A stretch of DNA of 63,016 nucleotides, counting the filler, from Rhabdomonas costata (taxonomy: Eukaryota): the NCBI GenBank assembly GCA_019059605.1. It is 28 parts of 28 records of this genome, joined end to end, with 100 filler letters (N's around TTAATTAATTAA, not from the genome) between each part and the next. Parts side by side here need not be neighbours in the genome. Positions count along the whole stretch, not along the records: positions 60,865 to 63,016 come from JAHMHO010005230.1; 27 more parts are not named here. One strand, written 5' to 3'. Below the pieces are notes generated by a model. That model was not told the origin of the DNA, did no database searches, and was given only the letters and a program-made list of their open reading frames with translations. The translations under genes and the position numbers were made by a program. Below are positions 4,802 to 63,016 of the stretch, in pieces. The number at the start of each line of letters is the position of its first letter. Within the stretch, counting starts at the first letter, position 1.

Positions 4802-6298
4802 GAAGCGTGTACCCGATCGAGGTGCGCAAGCAGATGTTCCTGGAGGTCTCCGTGCTGCCCATGGCGCAGGACCAGTTGCTGGGCTTCACCACCGGAGAGC
4901 TGCTGGTGCTGCACCGGCTGTCCGCTGCGGCGGACGCGCCGGCGGTGTGGCAGATGAGCAACAGCGACACCGGGTTCCGCATGGCGACGATCTCCGCAGT
5001 GTCGTGGGGAACGGACTGGCTGGCCCCTGCCTCCGGGAACCTCAACGGCACCGGGTCGTTGTACAACGCGTCGATCCGGGTATGCTTCTGTGACCTGGGT
5101 TTCTGTCCAATTCCTATGTCGTTGAGTTGATGCGGTAGCAGAACGTAGTTTCGCTTTATTTGCGTCATAGTCCTGGTTTAAGACGGCGGTGCAGAACCCG
5201 GGCACCACAGTGACCTTTGGCTCGGTGTACTTCGCGCTGCACCCCACGGGACCCGCGATGGTGGTGCCCGCGGTGTACCCGGTCACTCAGACGGGGAGTT
5301 CCGTGATGACCTGCGTTGCGGCGATGAACGTTGTGCTTCAGTCGTTGGATGACTTCCTGAAGACGGTACTTGCCGCTGCTCCCCCCACCTTGTCGTTTGT
5401 TCAATTTCTCATGGCTCTGTGTGCCCTGGCGGTGCCCTGGCGCTCAGATCACGGCTTCGCTTCTGTCGGAGACGGTGCTGTTCCTTGTGGAGCGGAAGTC
5501 GGGAGCCCTTCTGGCGAGCTCGATTGCGGGGCAGTCGTTGGTGGGCTCGTACGACGCGGTGACGGGAGCGGCACAAGTTTTGCTTGCCCAGCAGGCCAGC
5601 AGCACGGTAATCCGCAAGATTGCGAGTGCCACGATGGACCCAGTGACGGGTTGGACGCGGTTCACGGGGACCTACGACGAGGACATCCAAACTGGGGACT
5701 ACTACGCCCATGTGGGCCCTATCACGATGCAGGTGTCCGCCTATTCTGTCTTTTCATTGCCTGAATATGCGTTTTTGTGCATTTTGCTTCTGTGTTTGCC
5801 TAATGTCTTATTATTAGGGCCTGGACTGGGTGCTTGTGGTGGGCACGAAGAGGTCGGTGTGGATGGCATACATCAACTCCGGGGTGCCGCTGACGGTGGG
5901 CCTGGTGGCGGCGTGCATCGTGGGGTGTGTTTGTGGATGAATGCCTGTCTGTTCTTATTTGTTCGCATTCTTCGTAGGATGAGTTGACGAACCTCATCCT
6001 ACGCCCTCTCCGCCCTTTTGTGTTCGCATCCTCCGTATTCTGCCTCGAAGCAGACGCGTTTTCGGCTCCTGTGCGTTTAATACCTAATGTTGTTTCTTTT
6101 CAGGTTGTGCCTGGTTTTGTTTGTGATGGTCCGGCTGTCGACATCGCCACTGCTTCGTATCATTGGGCAGCTCTCCCTGCTGCAGGAGCTTGACCTGGAG
6201 CAGGTCAAGCCCTTCAGCCGGCTCTCCGCGCTCAGTGAGGTGGCGACGTTGATGTTGGCTTTCAACGGGCTGGCCGCGGCGCTGAAGGAGTACCGCAA
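4802..6298 (+). CDS. Receptor-type signalling protein (Cache-like extracellular domain, TM, HAMP), probably a receptor adenylyl cyclase; internal exons 4802-5079, 5171-5365, 5448-5732, 5818-5924, 6104-6298
   Basis: Five GT-AG exons with matching phases. They give YNASIR|SWFKTAV (Cache-like R-x-W-F), GLDWVLVVG, a hydrophobic helix VPLTVGLVAACIVGLCLVLFVMV, then HAMP-like SPLLRIIGQL..SALSEVATLMLAFNGLAAALKEYRK. Confidence 0.8.
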
Positions 6299-7760
6299 GT
6301 ATGGAATGCAGCCAAGAGCTGTATATATGATTACATCGTCATGCTTCTCTGTAAGATTATTCCCAGCAAACGAGTAAACGACTCCCGCCAAGGTTCTTTC
6401 GGGCTAACGAACGGAACCATTTGACAGCTGCATTACAAAGAATCCAGTGCTGCTAGTAGTACAGTGTTCACAGTGTGGGTGAAAGAAAATAACTGATTTA
6501 CAGTGGCAGAGAAACAGAAGAGGAGCGGCACTATGCAGGAGGCAAAGGTGGGTTGAAAAAAATTGTCAAATAGGAGGAGTTTCGGTTTTTCGTAATAAAA
6601 AGCTCAGATATTTAAATTAAAAATGTAATTAAAAAAACTTGAGGACACGAAATATGACAACCCCCCCCCNNNNNNNNNNNNNNNNNNNNNNNNNNNNNNN
6701 NNNNNNNNNNNNNTTAATTAATTAANNNNNNNNNNNNNNNNNNNNNNNNNNNNNNNNNNNNNNNNNNNNTTTGTGTGGGGTCGACTTCCCTACCGTTCTC
6801 ATCCATTGAAGCGTTTCGCAGGGGAGGGCTATCGTGGGCCACCCAGATTTTTCACACCATGTTAGAAAGTAACGCAGATTCAAACGCCACTGAAAAGAGG
6901 GACAGTGGAAAAAGTGCACCAAACTCTGAAATCTGCAAATGCAAACTACTCCCGCACGGGAAAAATCGTGTCATCACTGCACCTTGATAATTCTGCATCT
7001 AAGGGGAATGCACACTCTGGTTAAGCAGGTATCTTTTCAGTTGTTACCGCGAACTGGGAACAACGGCAAAAATCATGGTAACAAGGTTCGGAAAATGACT
7101 ACTGCCAACCCCTCAAGTACTAAAACAAATTATGCGCATCCAATATGTTCTCGAAAGCACTAAACGTGTGTGAAACCTGCGTTCTTGAAGAAGAAGAGTT
7201 GAGAGAGACATTCCGTTCCTTAGTGGGAACCGATTGAACAATGCTTGGGGATGAATACATTAGTTCAATCAAGCGGAATTTTTAGCAACTCTAAGATTTA
7301 GCCACACCCAGGTTGCTGAAACTCGTTGAGTACGGAATTGGTTCCTCAGGTAACGAGCACTGAAGACAAGTGCTCGGGCCTGTGCGGTTCAGCGCGGGAA
7401 ACAAGAGGCACATATCTACACTGAGACCCTCAACGAAGATGAAATGGGATGAAAGAAGTGAATTGCAATGCAGGTTGCATAGCCCAAATTCTTCCATCCA
7501 GTACATCGCGCGCCTCGCGCACCCTTCTGAAAGCAAGTCAACCGTGGAGAATTAATACTTGCTCTCTGGTCAAGAATGAGAGAATTGTCACACATCGCAA
7601 ACAAAAGATGGGACTCACAATCGCAAGCCCCAGCTCCCAAAGACGGGCAAACAACACAAATAAGAACAAGCACACAAAAATCCATCAAGAGCACACCAAA
7701 AAACACACAGAAGCACACCAAAAAACAGTTCCACCGAAGCGCTGGGAACACTGGTATGAC

Positions 7761-8627
7761 TCATCCAAACCAACGAAGACTTTCCCTAAAGTCATCCATG
7801 GCAGCTCGAGTGGTACCAAGGTCCACCTCAGCCTCTGCAGCTCTTCTCTCATAGCTCCGCAGCTGCACCGCCATGCGCTTCATCGCCGCCTCCATGTCCT
7901 GCTTCAGCTCGCGAAGGGTCGCGTTCTCGGCCTCGAGGGCAGCTAGCCTTTGCTTCGCTCTGTGCAACGACCTCTTGAGCTGCACACCTTGAAGCTGCCA
8001 CTGCGAGACTTCGGCCTGGGTGCTCTGCAGACAGCTCGCTATGGCCTCATTCTCCTGTAAGACCTGTTGCAGCTGGGTTTCCAGAAGCGCTGCCTTGACC
8101 TGCAGGTTTTTTACTGAAGAGCTGGAACGTACAGATCGCAGGGAGTCGTGTTTCTGAGGAACTGGGGGGGATTCCGTGAGCTTTGCATCACAAGAAGGTG
8201 GGGGACTTGCATTTGAGAGTGACTTCCAAGCTCTAGAAAAGACAGAGCCTCGCTTTCGGCTGACTCCTGGCGAGGAGGCGGCTGCTTGGGTATGGAGCTC
8301 TGAGCCCTTGTTGGGAATGACCAGATGTGGGGACTTCTGCTCAGGAGAGGGGCGAGTCGCTTTGCACGTGTATTTATCGACACTTCCCCTTACCGTCGAC
8401 TCACAGTCTGACACCAGGGCAGATCCAAGGTCAGCTGGCCTGCTGTCGGTGCTTCGTCCCCCGCAATTGGCAGCATCCGACGGCTCCGGGGAAGTCGTAT
8501 GGCGTGGCGTCAGAGTGTGACTACCGGGACCTGGACTCGGACTTCGACTCCGACACCAGCTGACCTCGGAGTCCACTGGCGACGAAGGGCGTCTCCCTTC
8601 CAATGCTCTTTTTTGGTTGGTTGCCAT
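7761..8627 (-). CDS. Intronless hypothetical protein (288 aa): Ser/Pro-rich N-terminus, C-terminal coiled coil
   Basis: Long ORF starting MATNQ at 8627, preceded by a pyrimidine-AG (cttgcag). Heptad-rich tail LQVKAALLETQLQQVLQENE..LAALEAENATLRELKQDME. Confidence 0.75.
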   Translation of the reverse strand: MATNQKRALEGRRPSSPVDSEVSWCRSRSPSPGPGSHTLTPRHTTSPEPSDAANCGGRSTDSRPADLGSALVSDCESTVRGSVDKYTCKATRPSPEQKSPHLVIPNKGSELHTQAAASSPGVSRKRGSVFSRAWKSLSNASPPPSCDAKLTESPPVPQKHDSLRSVRSSSSVKNLQVKAALLETQLQQVLQENEAIASCLQSTQAEVSQWQLQGVQLKRSLHRAKQRLAALEAENATLRELKQDMEAAMKRMAVQLRSYERRAAEAEVDLGTTRAAMDDFRESLRWFG

Positions 8628-9291
8628 CTTGATGAGAGAGCGAGAATGACGGTTTGATGAACACACTGTTACCCTGCAAGACAGGTAGGTCACTGAAGCC
8701 TCAGTGCTGAATTGAACTCTGCCCTCCTTGAAAAATACTTGCGAAGAAGCTTCGCCTAAAAAAGGTACAGTCCTGGAAAGAAAGAAAAACTCCTGCAATT
8801 CCAGAAAACAGACACCTCTGACGTCCATATTCACTCAGTAGGTGTGGAAGTACCGAAAGCTGAAAATATCGTGTCTTAATTTTCAACGCAATGTGGGCAT
8901 ATAGTACCCCGCCGAACAAAAACCCNNNNNNNNNNNNNNNNNNNNNNNNNNNNNNNNNNNNNNNNNNNNTTAATTAATTAANNNNNNNNNNNNNNNNNNN
9001 NNNNNNNNNNNNNNNNNNNNNNNNNGTGTGGGGGGGGCGGCCCAAAGGGGGTGCCAGTGAAGACTGACAGAAAGTCAAAACTCGTGTGACTGCGCTTTTG
9101 CTCACTCACCAGCACACATCGCAGTGAGTCAAGAAATGTGCGGGGGTGTCAAGCTGCCTCGTGTCGGCTTCAGGAGAGGAAGGATATTAGGAGGACAGCG
9201 GGGCTTCGTCGGAAGGGCTTTCCCGATGGTTCCTTTCCCGAGTCACACAAACACACATCCGTGCTGCATGCACACACCTCTGGGAGCCCAC

Positions 9292-10712
9292 TTAACGGCC
9301 CCCGGCCGTGGCGGTGGGACTGACCGGAGGCAGCGCTCCGTCCTCGTCGGTGTGCTCCCGGTGGAAGTCCCACGGGATCAGTGCCCTCTCAGTGTACTTC
9401 CCCATCTTGTACGTCCGCATGTCCCCCACCACATCGGTTACTCTTCCTCTCGGGCGGAAGGCCTGCGTGCGGCCAAAGATCCCCCCCTCAACACGCACAA
9501 AAAGAGCCCAGGCGCAGGCCCAGGCACAGGCTTTGTGAAAGGCTTAGCAACCCAAGCTGAGTGGAATGACGGCAGTGGGGTTCGCAAGTCCTGAAATGCT
9601 TGTTCAGAGGCAAAACCTCTATTTGAGCCCATTTATCATTCCCAATCTTGGCTAGACCGATTTTCGAAAGAAAGATGGGCGGGGGCGAAAGGAGGTTAGT
9701 ACGGAACGCATTGCATCCTCCCGTCCGTCCCATCTCTTCCCCGACAGCTCCACTGTGCTCTCAGTCGAGCCTCAGTAGCGAAAAGAGTGACAGCAACTTC
9801 AAAACGACAGTAATTCCCGCATGTCTACATTTTCTCCATGACCAGACCAAAAACAAATAACTGGCTGAAGCAACTCAAGACCGTTTCCCTCCCAACAAAG
9901 CAGACAATGACAAAGAAAAAAATCACCCATCTATGGTATCGGCTGATATAGTGTGTACCATAGATGGGCTGCAGCGCCAAAGAGAATGGAGGCGACACCA
10001 ACCAAGGAACCAAACACATGTTCTCAACACTGCTGTAAGAGGGTGATACTCGAATGTCGGTCCTCTCTTCAGCACACCTCCAGCTCCTTCATTTGGGCGC
10101 CGGGGTCCTCCAGGGAGTTGTTGCCCTTGGGGGCGAGGCTCCACGGCTGGCCCGCCCGCTGGGCCTCGCACAGCTCCGCCATCTGCTTCCGGGTCTGCGG
10201 GGAGGGCTGTTGTGATGTCTGAGGGAAGAAGAAAAAGAAGGTTAGCACGCGCCTACGCGCCCAAATTCGCGAACGGAAATCCCACGTATGAAATCCAACA
10301 ATAACGTTGAAAAACACTATTTGGCACACCCGAGCTAACCCTCAGGTGCCTTCGGCGCAAACAGTACTAAACAGTAAATAGTGAGGGCAGAACCTTTTCA
10401 TGAGGAAAAAGTATCTGTGGTACCTGGTGCACAACAAGGATCCGCATCAGGTCCATGCACTGGGGTGTGGTAAAAAGAGTATCGTAAAGTACCTGTGGGT
10501 TCACAATGTGGATATGTGAGGGCTTGCTTGCGTTGCGTTGCTTTGCATTGCATGCGCCCTGGTCGTACCTTTAGAAAAAGCACCAGGGCATCTGGGGACA
10601 TCGACCGAGCTTTCACTCGGCGGGTGCGCTGCTCCACCCGGAACTCCTCGGAAAGCTCCCTCTGGTTCTGCGTGAACCACTCTGTGGAAATCCCGCCCGT
10701 TTTCCGCACCCC
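9292..10712 (-). CDS. Hypothetical protein, 3' exons ~10712-10617, 10218-10078, 9462-9292
   Basis: GC-rich exons with GT-AG, phase-0 joins, ending ..QMKELE|AFRPRGRVTDVVGDMRTYKMGKYTERALIPWDFH..GGR*. No family recognised. Confidence 0.6.
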
Positions 10713-11415
10713 CTTGATGATGAACCCATTCAGCATCATTCAGCATCAGGAAAAGAACCCTCCAAAAAACCACAGAAACCCAAGGACGCTTCCACAGTAC
10801 TTCCACCTAGCTTCCATCCCCGAAAGTGCCTTTCTTTGAAGTGACACGGACAGAAAACAATTCAACAGCATCCCCCAGAAGTCTCTGCACCCTCCCTTGG
10901 TCAAAAGCAAATTGGAAAACGCCTGTCATATTTTGGCTACCTTTGGGTTCTGTAACACTCTTTTCCCTTGACAGAGTTCACGAGAGGCCAGAAAGGATAG
11001 AGGATAAGTTCGCAAGCTGGGGATTCTGCCAAGTTGTCCACGATATACGATGGTGATTACTCCCATATTTAGCAAATTTTGTTTTCCGTTCAGAACCTCT
11101 CAGCAGTAGATGCCAAAACTGAGCCGATACAACAGTAAGGGTTAATTTGTTCGCCGCGCATCCATTGGTCCACAACAACCCNNNNNNNNNNNNNNNNNNN
11201 NNNNNNNNNNNNNNNNNNNNNNNNNTTAATTAATTAANNNNNNNNNNNNNNNNNNNNNNNNNNNNNNNNNNNNNNNNNNNNGGTGCTGTGGCTGCTGCCT
11301 GGTTCCTGTCTCCGGTGCTACGTTCCTTCCTTTCCGGCTTTGCACTCCCAAGTTAGTATCCAGATCTCGGGTTCCTTACGTGCACGTGTGTTATTATTAT
11401 TACTATGGTATGGTG

Positions 11416-11470
11416 TAGTGTAGTGTAGTGTAGTGTAGTGTAGTGTAGTGTAGTGTAGTGTAGTGTAGTG
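11416..11470 (+). repeat. (TAGTG)11 microsatellite
   Basis: Eleven perfect pentamer copies. Confidence 0.97.
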
Positions 11471-12229
11471 TGCGTTGTAGCGTTGGGTGTGGTTGTGGTT
11501 GAGGCGATGCGTTAGTGCTTTGTGTGTTGCTCTGTTACGTTGTGTTGGTGTCAGTGGCTTGGGGTGTCGATGCGTAGGATGGTGTCAGGTGAGTCGGAGT
11601 CTGGGGTTCTGTGCGTTGTCAAGCTGAGGGTCATGGTGTGTGTTGGAGTGACGATGTTGGGTTCTTGCGTGTGGATTTCAGGGTGTCAGGGTTTGCGTGG
11701 AAGTTGGAGGGTGGTTGCTGGTGATGCGTCTCAGGGTGTAAGGGCTGTACTGTGCTTCTGTGTGTAAGGGTGTTGGTGTTCTTGACGTGTGGGGTTCGTG
11801 GCGTGGTGTTTTTGGGTCTCAGGGTGTTGAGGGGTTCAGGTGTCAATGCGTTCTGTGTCAGTGCTTCTACAGTGTATGTTGGTGTCATGGTGTTCTGTGT
11901 TTCTAGGGGCTTTGTGTGAGGATGTTGGGGGTTGAGGTGTGAGGGGTTCGTGAGGCTATGGGTATCAGCATGACTATGGGTGAAGAATGCAGTAACTCAG
12001 CATGACTATGGGTGATGAAGATGCCAAAGATGCCAAGATGCCTAAACCCACCTGATGCCTTCCTACCGCAGGTGCCTTCTACTACGGATGGCTCCGTCTA
12101 AGCCTTCACCTTCTACCGGTATCTTCCTCTGTGGCTACGCCAGGACGGAACGAGTGAAGGCGCCTTGTGGCGGTGGAACGAGTGAAGTGACAGGTGTATA
12201 AGAGGTGAGTTGAGAGGGAGGGAGGCATG

Positions 12230-13160
12230 AAAGCACCTTATGGTGGTGGAGTGAGAGGAGTGACAGGTGGGGGTTAATGCGTAGGATGACCGAACGTAAG
12301 CACCTTATGGTGACGATGGCCACCGTCAATCCGTCACATTGTGGGATATGGACTGGATGTGGAGGACAACCATACGTCGTGGTGCGAGCCATGGCGGTAT
12401 TGCATCAGCTGCATGCTGCTATGATGTCATGTCAACCCGTAGTGTTGGCTCCTTCACAGGGTAATGGTGTTCCTGGCCACTCCAACACACCATCATCATC
12501 AGCACAGTAGCAGCACAGGACATCAGATACAGTAGGGTGTGTGCACTCTATTCCACTCTATGCGTACCTTGTGTTTGTGGTGGTGGCGGTGGCGTCGGAC
12601 GTGCTGTCCATGGGATCTTATCCCCTACCTCATGTCATCACAATGTGTGTCAAGGGATAAAAGTCAACCCAAGGTAAGGTGTCGCGGCATGGACCGATGT
12701 ACTGCCAAGGGGATGTCACAACTTCTATGGTGATGTTGTCCGTGTGGAGGTCATGACATGACGTGAGGGATATGCATCCGCGTTACCATGAGTGTTGTGA
12801 TGGCGGGGTGTGAAAGCGAAGATGACGCCATGACCCTGATGGTGGCGGGGAGCACCACTACCACTGAACCCTAAGGGAGGGTATTGGTTATGGCTACGCC
12901 CGGTGTGAAAGAAGATCCTGGTTGTTGCGGTCGCTGCGCTTCCTCCACTCCTAAATTTCTTGGTTGCATGGTCGCTGCTCTCCTATGCCCCTACACCCTT
13001 GATACCCTACTCACTGCGTTCGTGGGCCCCCAAGTTCTTGTTGGTCGCATGCTCCCTTCCGCTTGCATGTTCTGTAAATGCTGCGGCTATCAACCCTTGC
13101 CTTGATCGCGTCCACGGTGCTAGCCAGCGTTCCGGGATTGAGGGTTTGGGTTAGGGCATG
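12230..13160 (+). mobile_element. Decayed dispersed repeat (possible retroelement remnant), related to 25080-26240
   Basis: Shares collinear anchors with contig 12: CACCTTAxGGTGGTGGAG, CCACTACxACTG and GGGCCCCCAAG..GGTCGCATG. No intact ORF. Confidence 0.45.
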
Positions 13161-14228
13161 GGCGGGTTGGTTCCCGAAGCCGGCCCTATTTTTTTAGCAT
13201 GGACGTAGTGCGTTGCAACTTTTTGGATGCTTTTTTTAAATTTCTTTATCGATTTCCCTCTCCAGCGGCGGCGGCTATTAAAGTGCATCACCCCTGTCGA
13301 CCACCTTCAATTTTTTTTCCGGCGCTTCAGATGGGGAATATTGGGTATGAATCCAACGTTCGGCTTGGGATAAGTATTATCGCTAAGATGAATTCAATTG
13401 TTTGCGTCGATCGCCGGAAATGGGCAGAGGGGGCAAACCGGAAAAAAACGAACGAAGGCCACGTTCTCCGGCTGCTCCGGTTNNNNNNNNNNNNNNNNNN
13501 NNNNNNNNNNNNNNNNNNNNNNNNNNTTAATTAATTAANNNNNNNNNNNNNNNNNNNNNNNNNNNNNNNNNNNNNNNNNNNNTTTGCGGGCATCCCTATC
13601 ATCACGGCAACCAATATCCTCCCAGTGTACAGCCTTAGGCGTTGGAGGCACTCATTTCCCTGTCCCGGGGATCCGAGGAGCTGAGCAGCCTGTACCTCAG
13701 AGATCTGAGAAACCGCAGTGGACCCTCAAAAAAGCCGAACTCACAGAAACCATAATTAGCCCTTGGCTTTAATTTAACTTCATTACATATAGAAAGACAA
13801 AAACTGGCGTGCGCGGTGGGGTGGGGGCTGGTTCATACTGGCCCCCCCCCCCATGAACAATTTTATCCTGCGGCCTCTGCTGTGGAGGTGCCGGTTATGT
13901 CAAGGCTTAAAGTTACGGTTGGGGGCGGCGGTTTGCAGCTTTGCGGGCTTCTAAGCTCACTACACTTAGCCCCCCCTGGCACCAGCAGGTAGTAAAAAAA
14001 ATTGGCACCATTTCGTTCGTGGAGTTGCACTTTGCTCCTGTTTTCTTTTTCAGGTGAGCCTTCTTGACTTTATTCATCGTTGCCCTTGCTTCGGGCGTAT
14101 AACCAAACTGAGCAATGGAACTTCTGCACATGCATACGAAGAAATCGATCGAAGAACAGTGTGCCTATAATCACAAACATTTGAGGGGTATGACACCCCC
14201 CCCCCCTGTAACGCATCCGCGCACGAAC

Positions 14229-15257: not shown

Positions 15258-17022
15258 GGCACAACAGTCAGAAAAGGCCCCAGGCTGGGCTCCGACCATG
15301 TCACTTAGCCTCTCCCTCCCCCCGCATACCGCATAGTGGAGCCTATAAATAATGACAACCTATTAACTCAATCGAATAAAAATAGCTCACATCCGTCACT
15401 GCGTGTGATTTTGGGCAAATATTTATACCGATGCCCTGTAACACAATTGAATCAGTTCAGCTTTGTGCATCGAAAACTAGTCCTGTAGAAAGAGAGAATT
15501 AAACAGGAGGGGGCGGGCCCTCCACAACCAGCTGGGGACACCAACTGCATGACCAGTGGTAACAACGTGGTTAAATCCTGCTTTGAAGACTGGCTGAAAA
15601 TTTTTGGTACCCAGCTGAATGCGCGAACCCACCCCCCACAGACAGACAGACACCCTATGTACACCAGGCATTGCTGTGTGGAGGTTTTTCTGCCTCCAGC
15701 GGGCTTTGAACAACAACAGACATCCCCACCCACNNNNNNNNNNNNNNNNNNNNNNNNNNNNNNNNNNNNNNNNNNNNTTAATTAATTAANNNNNNNNNNN
15801 NNNNNNNNNNNNNNNNNNNNNNNNNNNNNNNNNTTTTGGTTATCCGATTTTCTCTATTGCAACTGCTTCCCCTTTTGTGGTACTCCCGCCTCACGTGTGC
15901 TGCTGCCGTGAATCCCCGCGGAAGTCCCTCCGTCGCCTCCGCATGTGGTCCAACTAATCTGGTTGTGTCCCTGCTATCTTTTGGGTATATGTGTTCACGG
16001 AAATTTTGCGTTCCATTTGATGTCGTGTGGACGGATGGACGGGGTGGTCACGGGCTTGTTGTGCTTGTGTTATGGTTGATTCGGCGCAAAGATGCGGAGG
16101 CAGACAGCGATTCCTTGCCCGCGCCTGGCCTTGGTCCCGCCCGAGCGTCTCAGACCATTTGAACTCGCACATGGAGCGTTTGCCCTTGCTGCACGAATGC
16201 TGCCTGTGCAGGAGGTCTCAGTGCATTTTGAAGCTTTGTGCTCTTACTGCGTACTGTAGGCAAGGTTTCCGAAGTTGCCAGGAGAAGAATTCTTTTCGTG
16301 GTGAAACGTATTTTTCGGCAGATTCTTGTTTTTTTTCCTACCCATCATCATCCATAATCCCAAACCCGCGAAGCCCTTCGCTAGGAGTGAGTGGATTGTG
16401 CTCTGCCATGTGAGGCCTGGGAGGCATTGCCAAAATCGTAAGTTATGCTTCAGGCGACCTCCCATTCACGTGTTGGGTCTGTGGTGGACTTTGGCTGAAG
16501 CGCCACGACCTTTGCGAATCTTCCAAATCCTTCCTTCTGCATGGGCAGTGTGGTAGGAACGCACTGTCCTTTCGTTCCAGTGCCATTTGCTGGGAGTGCA
16601 GTGGCATCACGGCTCAACAATGACGGTAGCGTGGATCGTCAGTGCGACTTTCGCGCAGACGGGGAATATAGTCAAAAACTGGTGGCTGCTGTAGCTAACC
16701 GATTACCCCGCGTGTTCCGTGTTTTATTTGCCATATGTGTTTTCGCGTTGCTTCTTGTCCTTCTTCCTCTTCTCTCGGTCTCTGTCCTTTCGTGGGTTTT
16801 TTTCGAGAACTGCGGTGGGTTGACCGCCCACCACTCGGATGTGTCGCCCTGGCTCACGATCGCCACTTCTGCCACGTGGAGCCTCTGATTTTACCTTCAG
16901 CATTTCGTCTTGCGCCTTTTTCTTAGCTGCCTGTAATTATCTCTTTTTGCATGTAACTTTTTTTTGATGAACTTTCTAGCCTTCTGAGCTAACCTGCCCA
17001 CCCTGCCTCCCCTGTGGAAGAC

Positions 17023-17224
17023 ATGGATCAGGTCGAGGACAGTGAGATCCTCTTTGATATGTCTGCGGAGAAATTCGAGCTGCGACGCGGGGAGTTTGAG
17101 ATTCGCAGCATGGATAATATTGAGGACACCAGGGGCCACAGCGGTGAGAAGGGCAGACTCCTCGTCACTAATCTGCGGATAATTTGGAGCTCCCAGAAGA
17201 ACCCCCGCGACAACACAAGCATCG
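17023..17224 (+). CDS. BBS5: Bardet-Biedl syndrome 5 protein, first coding exon
   Basis: MDQVEDSEILFDMS..LRRGEFEIRSMDNIEDTRGHSGEKGRLLVTNLRIIWSS..NTSIG matches the BBS5 N-terminus (EDTKGNNGxxGRLLVTNLRxxW). GT donor at 17225. Confidence 0.93.
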
Positions 17225-18399
17225 GTATTCTTTCAGTCTTCTTTTTCCGCCTTCTTTTTTATTTCAGCCCTCTCTTGTTTCATTTTTATGGCGCTTGCTG
17301 GACGCTCAGGTGTATGGAAGGAAAAGAGATTCCTTTACGCTTATTTTCTCAGGGCACGTTGAAAGCGTCTCTAAATTTCAAAAAAGGACAGCGTGGACGT
17401 CAAGGACGTCACCTGAGCGGAAACTGTAGCAGGGTTGAGCACTTTGCGCAATGCAAAGCCCAAACATATTGGAAAGCACATCCACTGAGCGGCTTGACGC
17501 TGTCTTCATCCTTTCACGAATCTTATACTCTCTATATATGAGCGCTGCTCACACAGACAGCCGTCCTTCGCAATCTTCAAGGATGGAAAGGCGGGCGCCC
17601 ATCCTCAATCTATTATTGGGAGATCACGGCTGTGCAGCTGCTTGCGGCCTGTGCGTGGGAGCTTAAACACGGTGACCTCTTTGAGGCGCAGGCTGGAGCT
17701 GATGTGAAGGTGCCGCAGCGAAAAGGCACCTCTCCGCTGCTTATGTAGAGCTGGTCGCCTTTGGAGAGAACCAGTGCGTGTGACCCTCCCTTGGTGGGTT
17801 CCCCACAGCCCGCTATAGGGATAACTTTTTCGTTGTGGTGCCTGGGGACGAAGTAATGCTGACCGGGAGAGGACTGCGGCGGAGAGCAGGCTGCTGCTGA
17901 TGCCCATGGGATTTGAGCGGGCATGTAGGATTGCCTTTCGGCCTCCATTCGTCAGGCGGCGCGTTTTCTGCATCATATACCCACCACANNNNNNNNNNNN
18001 NNNNNNNNNNNNNNNNNNNNNNNNNNNNNNNNTTAATTAATTAANNNNNNNNNNNNNNNNNNNNNNNNNNNNNNNNNNNNNNNNNNNNGGGTTTTTGTCA
18101 CCACACTCCACTCACACAATCTTAGGCAAATGTCACACCATTACTCTTAAGGAGATTTCTCCTTCTGCACGCAAAACCTTCAATTGGTGGTTTTCGACAT
18201 CTCTGGAAACATCTGAAAATTGATGGTGGTTCACAACCGCTAACACAGCATTAGTTAATTGTTATTCGCACAACATTTCCCGCAATTCTCGTATAATCTG
18301 GACAGATTCCATCTCTTCCTTATTACTCATATGATATTTCTGAACCAGTCCTGAACCTCTCCGCTCTGCATCAGACTTCAACACCATTAATGAGCCCGC

Positions 18400-60764: not shown

Positions 60765-61169
60765 NNNNNNNNNNNNNNNNNNNNNNNNNNNNNNNNNNNN
60801 NNNNNNNNTTAATTAATTAANNNNNNNNNNNNNNNNNNNNNNNNNNNNNNNNNNNNNNNNNNNNACTTCTCAATGGAAAATAATTGCTTCTTCAAATGGA
60901 CCAACACCCAAGTAAAAGACGAATTCAGTGAAAGGACTAAAATCATAGACAAGCATTTGTTTTGGTCGAGTATCTCCGTAACGCCTGATGGTAGCCGCCA
61001 TTCCGAAGGTTGTTAAGGTTGGTAAGGAATCTGGCAAAACGTTAAGTTGCCCATATCAAGTTGCACTTCATATAAGTTCTGTTGTTTCTAATTTGCGCGA
61101 AATAAACCCGCCACCCGCGTTGAATTCCACATTTTCGAAGACCAAGACACAAGTCAAATAGGCAGTCAG

Positions 61170-63016
61170 CTACTGGGTGATCTTCAGGCACATATCTACA
61201 GAAGCGTAACGTGAAAACCACTGGTGCACGAGCCAATGCGCCAAACGAAGCACGTCATCTAGTGAAGGACAAGGGCAGGAAGGCAAATGTTGGAGCTCCA
61301 TTTCGAACTTAAACGCCAATTTTCTGCCTGAAGTGGAGGGTGGAAAACCGTGGACGAAAGCCTTTAGTACCCAATCGCGAGTCCAAGCTGTAGCAATCGC
61401 TCCACATCCTGTGTTGTGCTGGCGTACTCGGCGGCGAAGGTTGCTTGTTGACCCCACATAAACCTTGAGGTGCGCCACGGATTCCAGAATGTACACGACG
61501 TTAGTCAGGGATTGAGGAAGCTCCAGTGATCGAACATAAAACGATTCTGCAAAGCTCTCATAAACTGCGGCTGGTGGTGGAAGTTCACGAGAAAGCAGGT
61601 TGGCTTCTTCGATCCATTCATCAACTTCAGCACGCCAGTATGTCTGCTTTGAAAGCAGAGCTCTCAACGCCGTGGGGTCGTAACCGCAGAAGTAGATGTC
61701 CCTAAGGTGACGTACTCGCGTGACCAAGGTAAAAAGCATAAGACGAGACCACATCATGTGGTCCCACCTTTGGTCGGCACTGGTGGCGATGCACTCCTCG
61801 GTGTTCCCCTGGCAGTCGTGAACTGTCGTTGCGCACGAAAGCTCCAGTGGAATCTGAAGTCGACGCAGTTGCATCGAAGCAGCCCCTCGTACTTCCTACA
61901 AAAAGTGTAAGATCACTGATGGACAAAAACCCGCAACTCCCACGGGCGCTTGCGAGTTGTATCTTTGAACGGTGCGGTGGGGTTCCAGCTTACCGCCGTA
62001 CACTTTAGTGTGTGTGTGTGTGTATGGATGGATGGGATCAACCCAACGCACGACATGGTGTTCAGCAGGGACAGCAGCATCGCCAACGCGCGAACAACAA
62101 CAAAACAGCAAACAGCGGGTGGGGGTGTGGCGGCTCACGAAAGGCTGAAATAATACCGCAGACGACTGTCGCGCGACAGTCACAGCAGACTTGTCTTCCA
62201 GAAGGATCGTGACACTGTCGACCTGCGCATCGAACGAGACAACCTTGCCAACGGTGCCATTCGCGACAAATCGATGCCCAATCCAGAGGTTTTGCGTTAC
62301 TGTCATGCTTTCATTGGTGATAACATTTGTTACCCCAGGAAGTCCCGACTTGCGTGATAGCAGACGAGCGTGAGCAGCATTGCGGTCAGTGTGCCATGAC
62401 CCTGAGTAAAAGCTTTCATCTTTTGCATGAAAAGAGTACTTTGTGGCCGCGGGAGCATCTGCAAATCGTTTCTCGCGAATCTGGTTCACAGCCTCGTGCG
62501 TCGAGAGCAGCCAGGTTGCATTTTTGGGCACTTGCTCCATGTTTTGAACGAAACGGCAGAAAGTAGCAACAATAGACTCCGCTTCGGAAATCTGCGCAGC
62601 GGTGAGCGTTGGAATACGGAGGAGAGAAATCAGCCGCTGCAGTGCCGGGTCGTTTGTCGCCCTGTAAAGCTGGCGCAAGACAATCGTGTCGAAAGTGAAG
62701 AGCACCAAAGAGGAGAGAAGAGGGGAACGGTCGCCTATGGGGTCCACTTGATAGTGATCTCCACAACAGATGAGCCACACACCGCCGAAAGGGCGATCAT
62801 TGCCACGAACCTTTCGCAGCACCAGATCCATAGCTGAAAGCAAGCTGGCACCAACCTGAGCAAACTCATCTACCAGCAGTACATGGAGTTCCTGAAGAAT
62901 GCGCTTCTGAACAGGGTTTGACAAGAAGCGTGCGATGGCTGCGGAAGCAAATGATACAGCTGTGTCTGTCCCTTTCGATGACGGTCGAAAGCCAAAAAAT
63001 CGGTGGATGTGAATGC
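61170..63016 (-). CDS. PIF1-family (SF1B) helicase fused to a C-terminal GIY-YIG (SLX1-like) endonuclease; exons >63016-62157 and 61895-61170; possible Helitron-like element protein
   Basis: Exon 1: IHIHRFF, LLVDEFAQV, DRPFGG, CGDHYQVDPI, LRQLYRA, VTQNL..ANGTVG. Phase-0 GT-AG intron at 62156-61896. Exon 2: QIPLELSCATTVHDCQGNT and TLVTRVR (helicase motifs V/VI), then VYILES..VYVGSTSNLRRRVRQHNTG..W..VHGF..AFKFE. Confidence 0.88.

Follow-up and report, generated by a model that had tools for sequence, protein, structure and literature searches.

A gene fragment of Rhabdomonas costata encoding a PIF1-type helicase and an SLX1-type GIY-YIG nuclease is probably the 3' part of a Helitron-like transposase gene

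The window analysed here, a stretch of 63,016 nucleotides from Rhabdomonas costata, is composed of 28 contigs of 2134–2201 bp each, which are arranged roughly with the longest first. The contigs are joined by spacers of 100 bp (44 N, TTAATTAATTAA and 44 N), and any feature that seems to span a spacer is therefore an artefact. The helicase-nuclease gene is located on the minus strand of the last contig (60865..63016, 2152 bp), whose end is position 63016. Its 5' side is truncated, since the contig stops inside the helicase. Two ORFs were found on this strand. The first one (61896..63014), which is open at its 5' end, gave a match to the Pfam family PIF1 at 1.1e-8. The second one (61170..61874) gave a match to GIY-YIG at 1.6e-10, comprising residues 126–183 (61499..61326), and a further match to UvrD_C_2 at 1.4e-4. 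Both ORFs are in the same frame, and the sole stop between them is a TAG at 61898–61896.

In the arrangement that is argued for below, exon 1 (62157..63014, minus strand) comprises 286 codons of the PIF1-type helicase and is truncated on the 5' side where the contig stops. A spliceosomal intron (61896..62156, minus strand) of 261 nt in phase 0 would follow, which reads GTATTA...TTTTTGTAG and has TAG as its last codon. A (CA)n microsatellite, read directly from the sequence, lies within this stretch at 62008..62024. Exon 2 (61173..61895, minus strand) comprises 241 codons for helicase motifs V/VI, a linker, the GIY-YIG domain and the native C-terminus. The catalytic core of the SLX1-type GIY-YIG domain (61298..61499, minus strand) contains the motifs VYIL...VYVGST, RRRVRQHN and FE. 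The TAG stop codon of the gene is at 61170..61172 (minus strand), and the relatives terminate no more than a few residues away. Over 527 codons, the reading frame is uninterrupted and the catalytic residues are retained. Neither exon contains a stop or a frameshift; the other frames contain 5–9 stops. The 3' flank (60865..61169, minus strand) has a length of 305 nt, and its GC content of 0.41 is lower than that of the gene (0.52). The flank showed neither a terminal hairpin nor an inverted repeat (0 inverted repeats in 60865–61300), and a search of the whole window against Rfam gave no match. By means of blastn and tblastn, no related sequence was found in the other 27 contigs of the window, that is, 1 of the 28 contigs holds the gene.

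Two further ORFs of the window may be mentioned. An ORF fragment at 16993–17538 (plus strand) matches BBS5 (Pfam BBL5, 2.3e-21, residues 15–82 only) and is probably a single exon of this ciliary gene, in keeping with an intron-containing eukaryote that bears flagella or cilia. An ORF of 357 aa at 7761–8834 (minus strand) gave only weak coiled-coil-type Pfam matches below the cut-offs (DUF3450, CCDC22_CC).

The putative intron begins with GT (62156–62155), ends with AG (61897–61896) and possesses a pyrimidine tract upstream of the AG. Its 5' splice site GTATTA looks weak. For the comparison with homologs, the region was translated straight through with an X at the stop. In the MAFFT alignment, none of 11 homologs had residues opposite the 87 intron codons. 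A BLASTP comparison with P0010, the closest homolog, aligned residues 2–285 of the query with residues 235–527 of the subject, and residues 374–576 of the query with residues 529–734 of the subject. P0010 is continuous across the junction, and the query jumps exactly the 87 codons of 62156..61896 without any indel. Four GT..AG options are in frame and free of stops; they have donor shifts of -27, -21, 0 and +18 and share one common acceptor. The option with donor shift 0 is the one that matches the homologs without an indel. The open frame of the intron is mildly unusual: in 880 of 20000 shuffles, the frame was likewise open until the final codon. Splicing of the 261-nt stretch, which would join the two ORFs into one, is well supported by this homolog comparison. 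In a previous interpretation (the sequence-only reading), it had been proposed that a PIF1 helicase and a GIY-YIG nuclease form a single gene, and that a GT..AG intron of 261 nt at 62156–61896 joins the two ORFs in frame. Both proposals agree well with the homologs, none of which (0/11) has residues at this site, with the closure of the junction against P0010, and with the occurrence of the same fusion in 112 of the best 150 relatives.

It was further considered that TAG might be read as a sense codon. This was rejected, as nothing in any homolog corresponds to the 87 codons in front of the internal TAG, and as the gene terminates with a TAG at the position where the relatives end as well. The shared end position argues that TAG functions as a genuine stop codon in this organism. 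In those relatives that were read as DNA, no intron was found at the intron site of the window gene. The called ORFs of P0001, P0002 and P0007, which are among the nearest relatives, begin where exon 2 of the window gene begins; the position of the intron may therefore be common within the subfamily. In locus L019, the frame of the transposase is divided into two long ORFs (5641–9354 and 9448–13248) that are 94 nt apart. An intron, a stop codon or a frameshift could be the cause of this split, whose site differs from that of the intron in the window.

Exon 1 starts just after Walker A with the HIH block and contains Walker B (VDEF), the Pif1 signature/motif III (PFGG..CCGDHYQ), motif IV and the SH3-like 2B part. 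Its Pfam PIF1 score of 35.4 bits exceeds the cut-off of 25.9. The match to the PDB structure of PIF1 (7otj) has a value of 4.2e-12, and the alignment covers the signature block and GD..Q. The comparison with P0010 yielded 38% identity over 295 columns (E 2e-56). Exon 2 opens with motif V (TVHDCQG) and the motif VI region (MWSRLMLFTLVTRVR), which are followed by the conserved linker YWRAEVDEWI. Motifs V/VI align in exon 2, which agrees with the earlier view that the second ORF opens with them. The helicase motifs II–VI and the Pif1 signature block are thus present, as is characteristic of PIF1-like SF1B helicases. Walker A is found in all 18 long relatives described below; the window copy stops short of its position. 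The sequence-only reading had further noted variants of the helicase motifs and regarded them as atypical. The variants do exist, but they are conserved across the subfamily and cannot be called atypical within it. Both HIH and MWSR.MLFTL.TRV are shared by P0010, P0004, P0009, P0005 and P0011, which are the nearest relatives, and are therefore traits of the subfamily and not signs of decay.

The nuclease part matched the PDB structure of SLX1 (6seh) at 1e-6, and its best solved relatives are SLX1 proteins. Residues Y135, Y146, R156 and H160 are invariant among close relatives (alignment A2), and the glutamate of the FE motif lines up with the corresponding SLX1 position. The retention of these residues had already been noted in the previous interpretation. 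A GIY-YIG core of the SLX1/URI subtype is present with its catalytic Tyr, Arg and Glu, and the nuclease looks catalytically intact. A structure predicted with AlphaFold from an alignment of 12 rows had a pLDDT of ~90 for the nuclease and low confidence for the helicase stub. In a Foldseek search against the PDB, the 11 best matches were all SLX1 or the plant homolog At-HIGLE (best value 4.7e-6); I-TevI (E 0.24) and UvrC (E 0.97) ranked behind them. Judged by its sequence and its predicted fold, the nuclease domain is of the SLX1 type. A C-terminal zinc finger as in SLX1 is absent: the homolog alignment shows ~40 residues after the core and no Cys/His cluster.

In order to find relatives, exon 2 was compared exhaustively by means of phmmer with 1.84 billion cluster representatives. 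The search yielded 463 proteins with E<=1e-3, of which 98 had values <=1e-10 and 10 had values <=1e-30. The best match (1.6e-47) is 45% identical to exon 2. Word-index protein searches with exon 2 ('longer' and 'near') found no relative. Among the best 150 of the 463 proteins, 112 contain both a helicase C-terminus and a GIY-YIG domain, and in 111 cases the two parts lie in one aligned stretch. The helicase part only was matched in 14 of these 150 proteins, the nuclease part only in 23, and neither of them in 1. Both parts were found in 27 of the 28 proteins with a length of at least 1500 aa among the best 150 of the 463, always near the C-terminus, with a median of 55 residues between the end of the match and the end of the protein. 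In many relatives, the short length simply reflects a short contig. Phage records and viral contigs gave no match; a viral origin is therefore without support.

A set of 18 long relatives (2363–2990 aa) was aligned and analysed with Pfam at E<=0.01. GIY-YIG was detected in all 18 of them, PIF1 in 16, Helitron_like_N in 8 and OTU in 2, with weaker OTU matches in others. P0052 and P0060 score above the curated Helitron_like_N cut-off. The block EFQ..H.H (E.Q...H.H) occurs in 18/18 long relatives, and both tyrosines of the block Y..KY occur in 17/18. We take these two blocks to be the HUH motif and the two-tyrosine motif of Helitron Rep nucleases. A profile of the Rep region matches all 28 proteins of at least 1500 aa among the best 150 of the 463, 10 of which are outside the seed. 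In relatives of 2400–2800 aa, a Helitron-type Rep (HUH, Y..KY) precedes the PIF1 helicase, which in turn precedes GIY-YIG. In front of Rep, the long relatives share an N-terminal region of ~1200 aa (alignment A1; for example residues 1–1200 of P0004) with invariant Cys, His and Trp residues and no Pfam family except for the occasional OTU.

The Rep region of P0052 was used for a further word-index search, which yielded 35 proteins. For 23 of them, a GIY-YIG match was precomputed. Among the other 12, 4 match the nuclease profile of the family, 7 stop before the position of the nuclease, and 1 is ambiguous. The 90% clusters in this set contain as many as 165 members, which speaks for repetition among the relatives. 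The one named protein in this set is a partial hypothetical protein of Perkinsus olseni. An AP endonuclease (Exo_endo_phos) was detected in 0/18 long relatives and in 0/35 proteins of the Rep search.

A quick tree was calculated with IQ-TREE from the last 640 residues of 61 rows, namely all proteins of at least 500 aa among the best 150 and the window copy. The window copy belongs to a clade of seven (SH-aLRT 97), whose other members are the Rep-bearing proteins P0004 and P0005 and four shorter proteins. In this tree, which contained no cellular PIF1 references, the window copy thus groups with Rep-bearing proteins and does not stand alone. Within its clade, it is the earliest branch.

The domain architecture is conserved in the family, and the catalytic residues of the window copy are intact. 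The contig probably carries the 3' part of a gene for a Helitron-like rolling-circle transposase, with a PIF1-type helicase and subsequently an SLX1-type GIY-YIG nuclease. It counts against this reading that Rep, Walker A and an element end are unseen in this copy, as the contig ends inside the helicase. The assumption of a Helitron-like element with GIY-YIG as its accessory nuclease, which was made in the sequence-only reading, holds at the level of the family, where it is backed by the Rep-bearing relatives and by the clade in the tree. The mobility of this particular copy and the role of its nuclease are inferences. The view of the sequence-only reading that the element is young is not supported, since there is no second copy for comparison. 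The nearest protein is only 45% identical and no relative was found by word index, that is, there is no sign of a recent burst.

The following sequence of steps is conceivable for such a transposase. Removal of one GT..AG intron of 261 nt would join helicase motifs I–IV to motifs V/VI and the nuclease. Judging from the homologs, the absent 5' part would encode a Cys/His-rich N-terminus, a Rep nuclease with HUH and two tyrosines, and Walker A. With the spacing of P0004, Walker A would lie ~40 codons and HUH/Y..KY ~650–700 codons upstream. According to established Helitron models, Rep would nick the end of the element and keep the 5' phosphate through a tyrosine, and the 5'-3' helicase would then peel the strand off. 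The GIY-YIG domain might give a second cut, either as a nick at the target or in the second strand, or by cleavage of a branched intermediate as in the case of SLX1.

It is less plausible to assume that the gene has been domesticated by the host, an alternative offered in the sequence-only reading. It would then be a cellular helicase-nuclease present as a single copy, which descends from such an element, no longer has Rep and has a role in repair or recombination. We regard this as unlikely, because Rep is found in 28/28 relatives that are long enough to judge, including P0004 and P0005 of the same clade, and because the absence of Rep in the window copy is due to the end of the contig and is not an observation. 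Similarly, many relatives are short merely as a result of short contigs. It is true that the frame is intact over 527 codons with the catalytic residues kept, that an intron is present at a site where the DNA of the relatives reads through, that no close paralog was found in the window or by word index in the protein collection, and that the window copy branches first within its clade, all of which would suit a host gene.

Still more improbable is a dead copy, in which the stretch of 261 nt would be an inserted sequence containing a microsatellite and a stop, so that helicase and nuclease are no longer one protein. An insertion could account for the (CA)n tract inside the stretch, for the weak-looking donor, and for the fact that the stretch is in frame and open to its final TAG. 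It would not be expected to have exact GT..AG borders whose removal restores the alignment with the homologs without an indel, nor a pyrimidine tract before the AG; moreover, both exons are free of stops and frameshifts, as opposed to 5–9 stops in the other frames. That the contig is an assembly chimera or a contaminant foreign to the genome, as might be suspected for a very short unplaced contig of a fragmented assembly whose relatives are common in environmental assemblies, is highly improbable, given its GC content of 0.51 inside the range of the other 27 contigs (0.43–0.58), the colinearity of the gene with homologs over the whole contig, and a eukaryote-type intron, which suits a window that also holds a BBS5 exon.

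A metagenome scan yielded 54 loci. Loci L001 and L002 share 99.8% identity over 9520 nt; for L016 and L031, the identity amounts to 96.1% over 6214 nt. On the left side, each of these pairs loses its likeness abruptly, and the flanks beyond are unrelated. A sharp left boundary with differing flanks is expected of one element that was inserted at different sites. In the loci of the relatives, neither right ends nor hairpins nor terminal inverted repeats could be defined; a reverse-complement match of 9 nt at L015:5001 was rejected as a terminal inverted repeat because it is too weak.

Near-identical internal pieces of the transposase, which are joined to unrelated sequence, were observed as well. 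Positions 1–1825 of L040 correspond to 1638–3462 of L021 and to 2074–3898 of L034, and positions 362–1997 of L046 correspond to 1933–3568 of L029; the identity in these comparisons is 99.5–99.8%. Such pieces might represent derivatives formed by deletion, non-autonomous copies or chimeras produced by the assembly. Furthermore, eight ORFs of 254–1464 aa adjoin the transposase gene in L011 (8431–15681) and L019 (207–5546 and 13367–16512). A Pfam family was assigned to 0/8 of these neighbours, which could represent either cargo carried by a larger element or genes of a host with a compact genome.

Among known systems, HLE2 elements (Helentrons) are among the closest. As described in the HELIANO paper (PMC11417382), they encode a Rep-helicase transposase in which an AP endonuclease forms the C-terminal part and an OTU domain is often located upstream. 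The family studied here likewise has Rep with HUH and two Tyr, then a PIF1-like helicase and then an accessory nuclease, and OTU lies upstream in some relatives. In contrast to Helentrons, the nuclease is GIY-YIG and not Exo_endo_phos/APE; the place after the helicase that is taken by the AP endonuclease in Helentrons is thus occupied by GIY-YIG. A second difference is the length of the family proteins of 2400–2800 aa with their conserved N-terminal region of ~1200 aa. In the same paper, HelenSM92 of Sphagnum magellanicum is described as RepHel plus GIY-YIG and as a capture in one family (PMC11417382). Judged by this description only, HelenSM92 differs from the proteins analysed here, in which GIY-YIG is a conserved C-terminal module of a large and diverse clade. 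HelenSM92 in the HELIANO paper (PMC11417382) was the only RepHel with GIY-YIG that we found in print, in full-text searches of a library without Repbase and subscription reviews.

The family profile was also compared with the PDB and matched PIF1 at 1.7e-30, the helicase part of Helraiser at 6.4e-25 and SLX1 (4xlg) at 3e-15. Helraiser (PDB 7lcc), a Helitron of the HLE1 type, is thus similar in its helicase, and Helitron_like_N is detected in 8/18 relatives. However, Helraiser has no C-terminal nuclease, and the alignment with the family profile is confined to its helicase part and does not include Rep. The nuclease belongs to the same GIY-YIG subtype as SLX1 and At-HIGLE, both by sequence (6seh, 1e-6; 4xlg, 3e-15) and by predicted fold. 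SLX1 possesses a C-terminal zinc finger and has SLX4 as its partner. In contrast, the window protein has ~40 residues after the core without a Cys/His cluster, and its nuclease would be fused to a helicase instead of being a free subunit. With the cellular PIF1 enzymes of yeast, human and Bacteroides, the window protein shares SF1B motifs and the Pif1 signature, which align (7otj, 4.2e-12; family profile, 1.7e-30). It is, however, far closer to the Rep-bearing family (P0010, E 2e-56), and HIH and TVHDCQG are family-specific. Finally, Penelope-like retroelements encode an enzyme with a C-terminal GIY-YIG domain that nicks the target (PMC11662393). They are comparable as a case of a eukaryotic mobile-element enzyme with GIY-YIG at its C-terminus, which is an analogy of use only: they have a reverse transcriptase instead of a Rep-helicase, and no homology of the elements is implied.

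The layout Rep-PIF1-GIY-YIG is common in sequence databases and, as far as the searched literature goes, barely described in print. What is new here is, as indicated by the homolog comparison, a divergent and intron-bearing member of this fusion family. An annotation that relies on Rep, helicase and APE will mislabel such genes as fragments of cellular PIF1 or SLX1; the short gene calls among the relatives are examples of this.

With regard to the wider family, we consider the chances to be about even that the fragment belongs to a large, essentially undescribed Helitron-like branch with a fixed architecture of 2400–2800 aa, in which an SLX1-type nuclease replaces the AP endonuclease of Helentrons in many eukaryotic lineages. 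This architecture would consist of a Cys/His-rich N-terminus (sometimes with OTU), HUH Rep, PIF1 helicase and SLX1-type GIY-YIG. Helitron-like elements are thought to need Rep and helicase only, and to our knowledge the role of the accessory AP endonuclease of Helentrons has never been tested. The presence of an unrelated second nuclease at the same position in hundreds of divergent clusters is an argument for regarding the extra cut as a component of the mechanism rather than as a passenger "capture". Since SLX1-type enzymes have known substrates, the GIY-YIG domain is tractable for testing. If such a branch does exist, it would point to a required second cut or to a step in which branched DNA is resolved during rolling-circle transposition.
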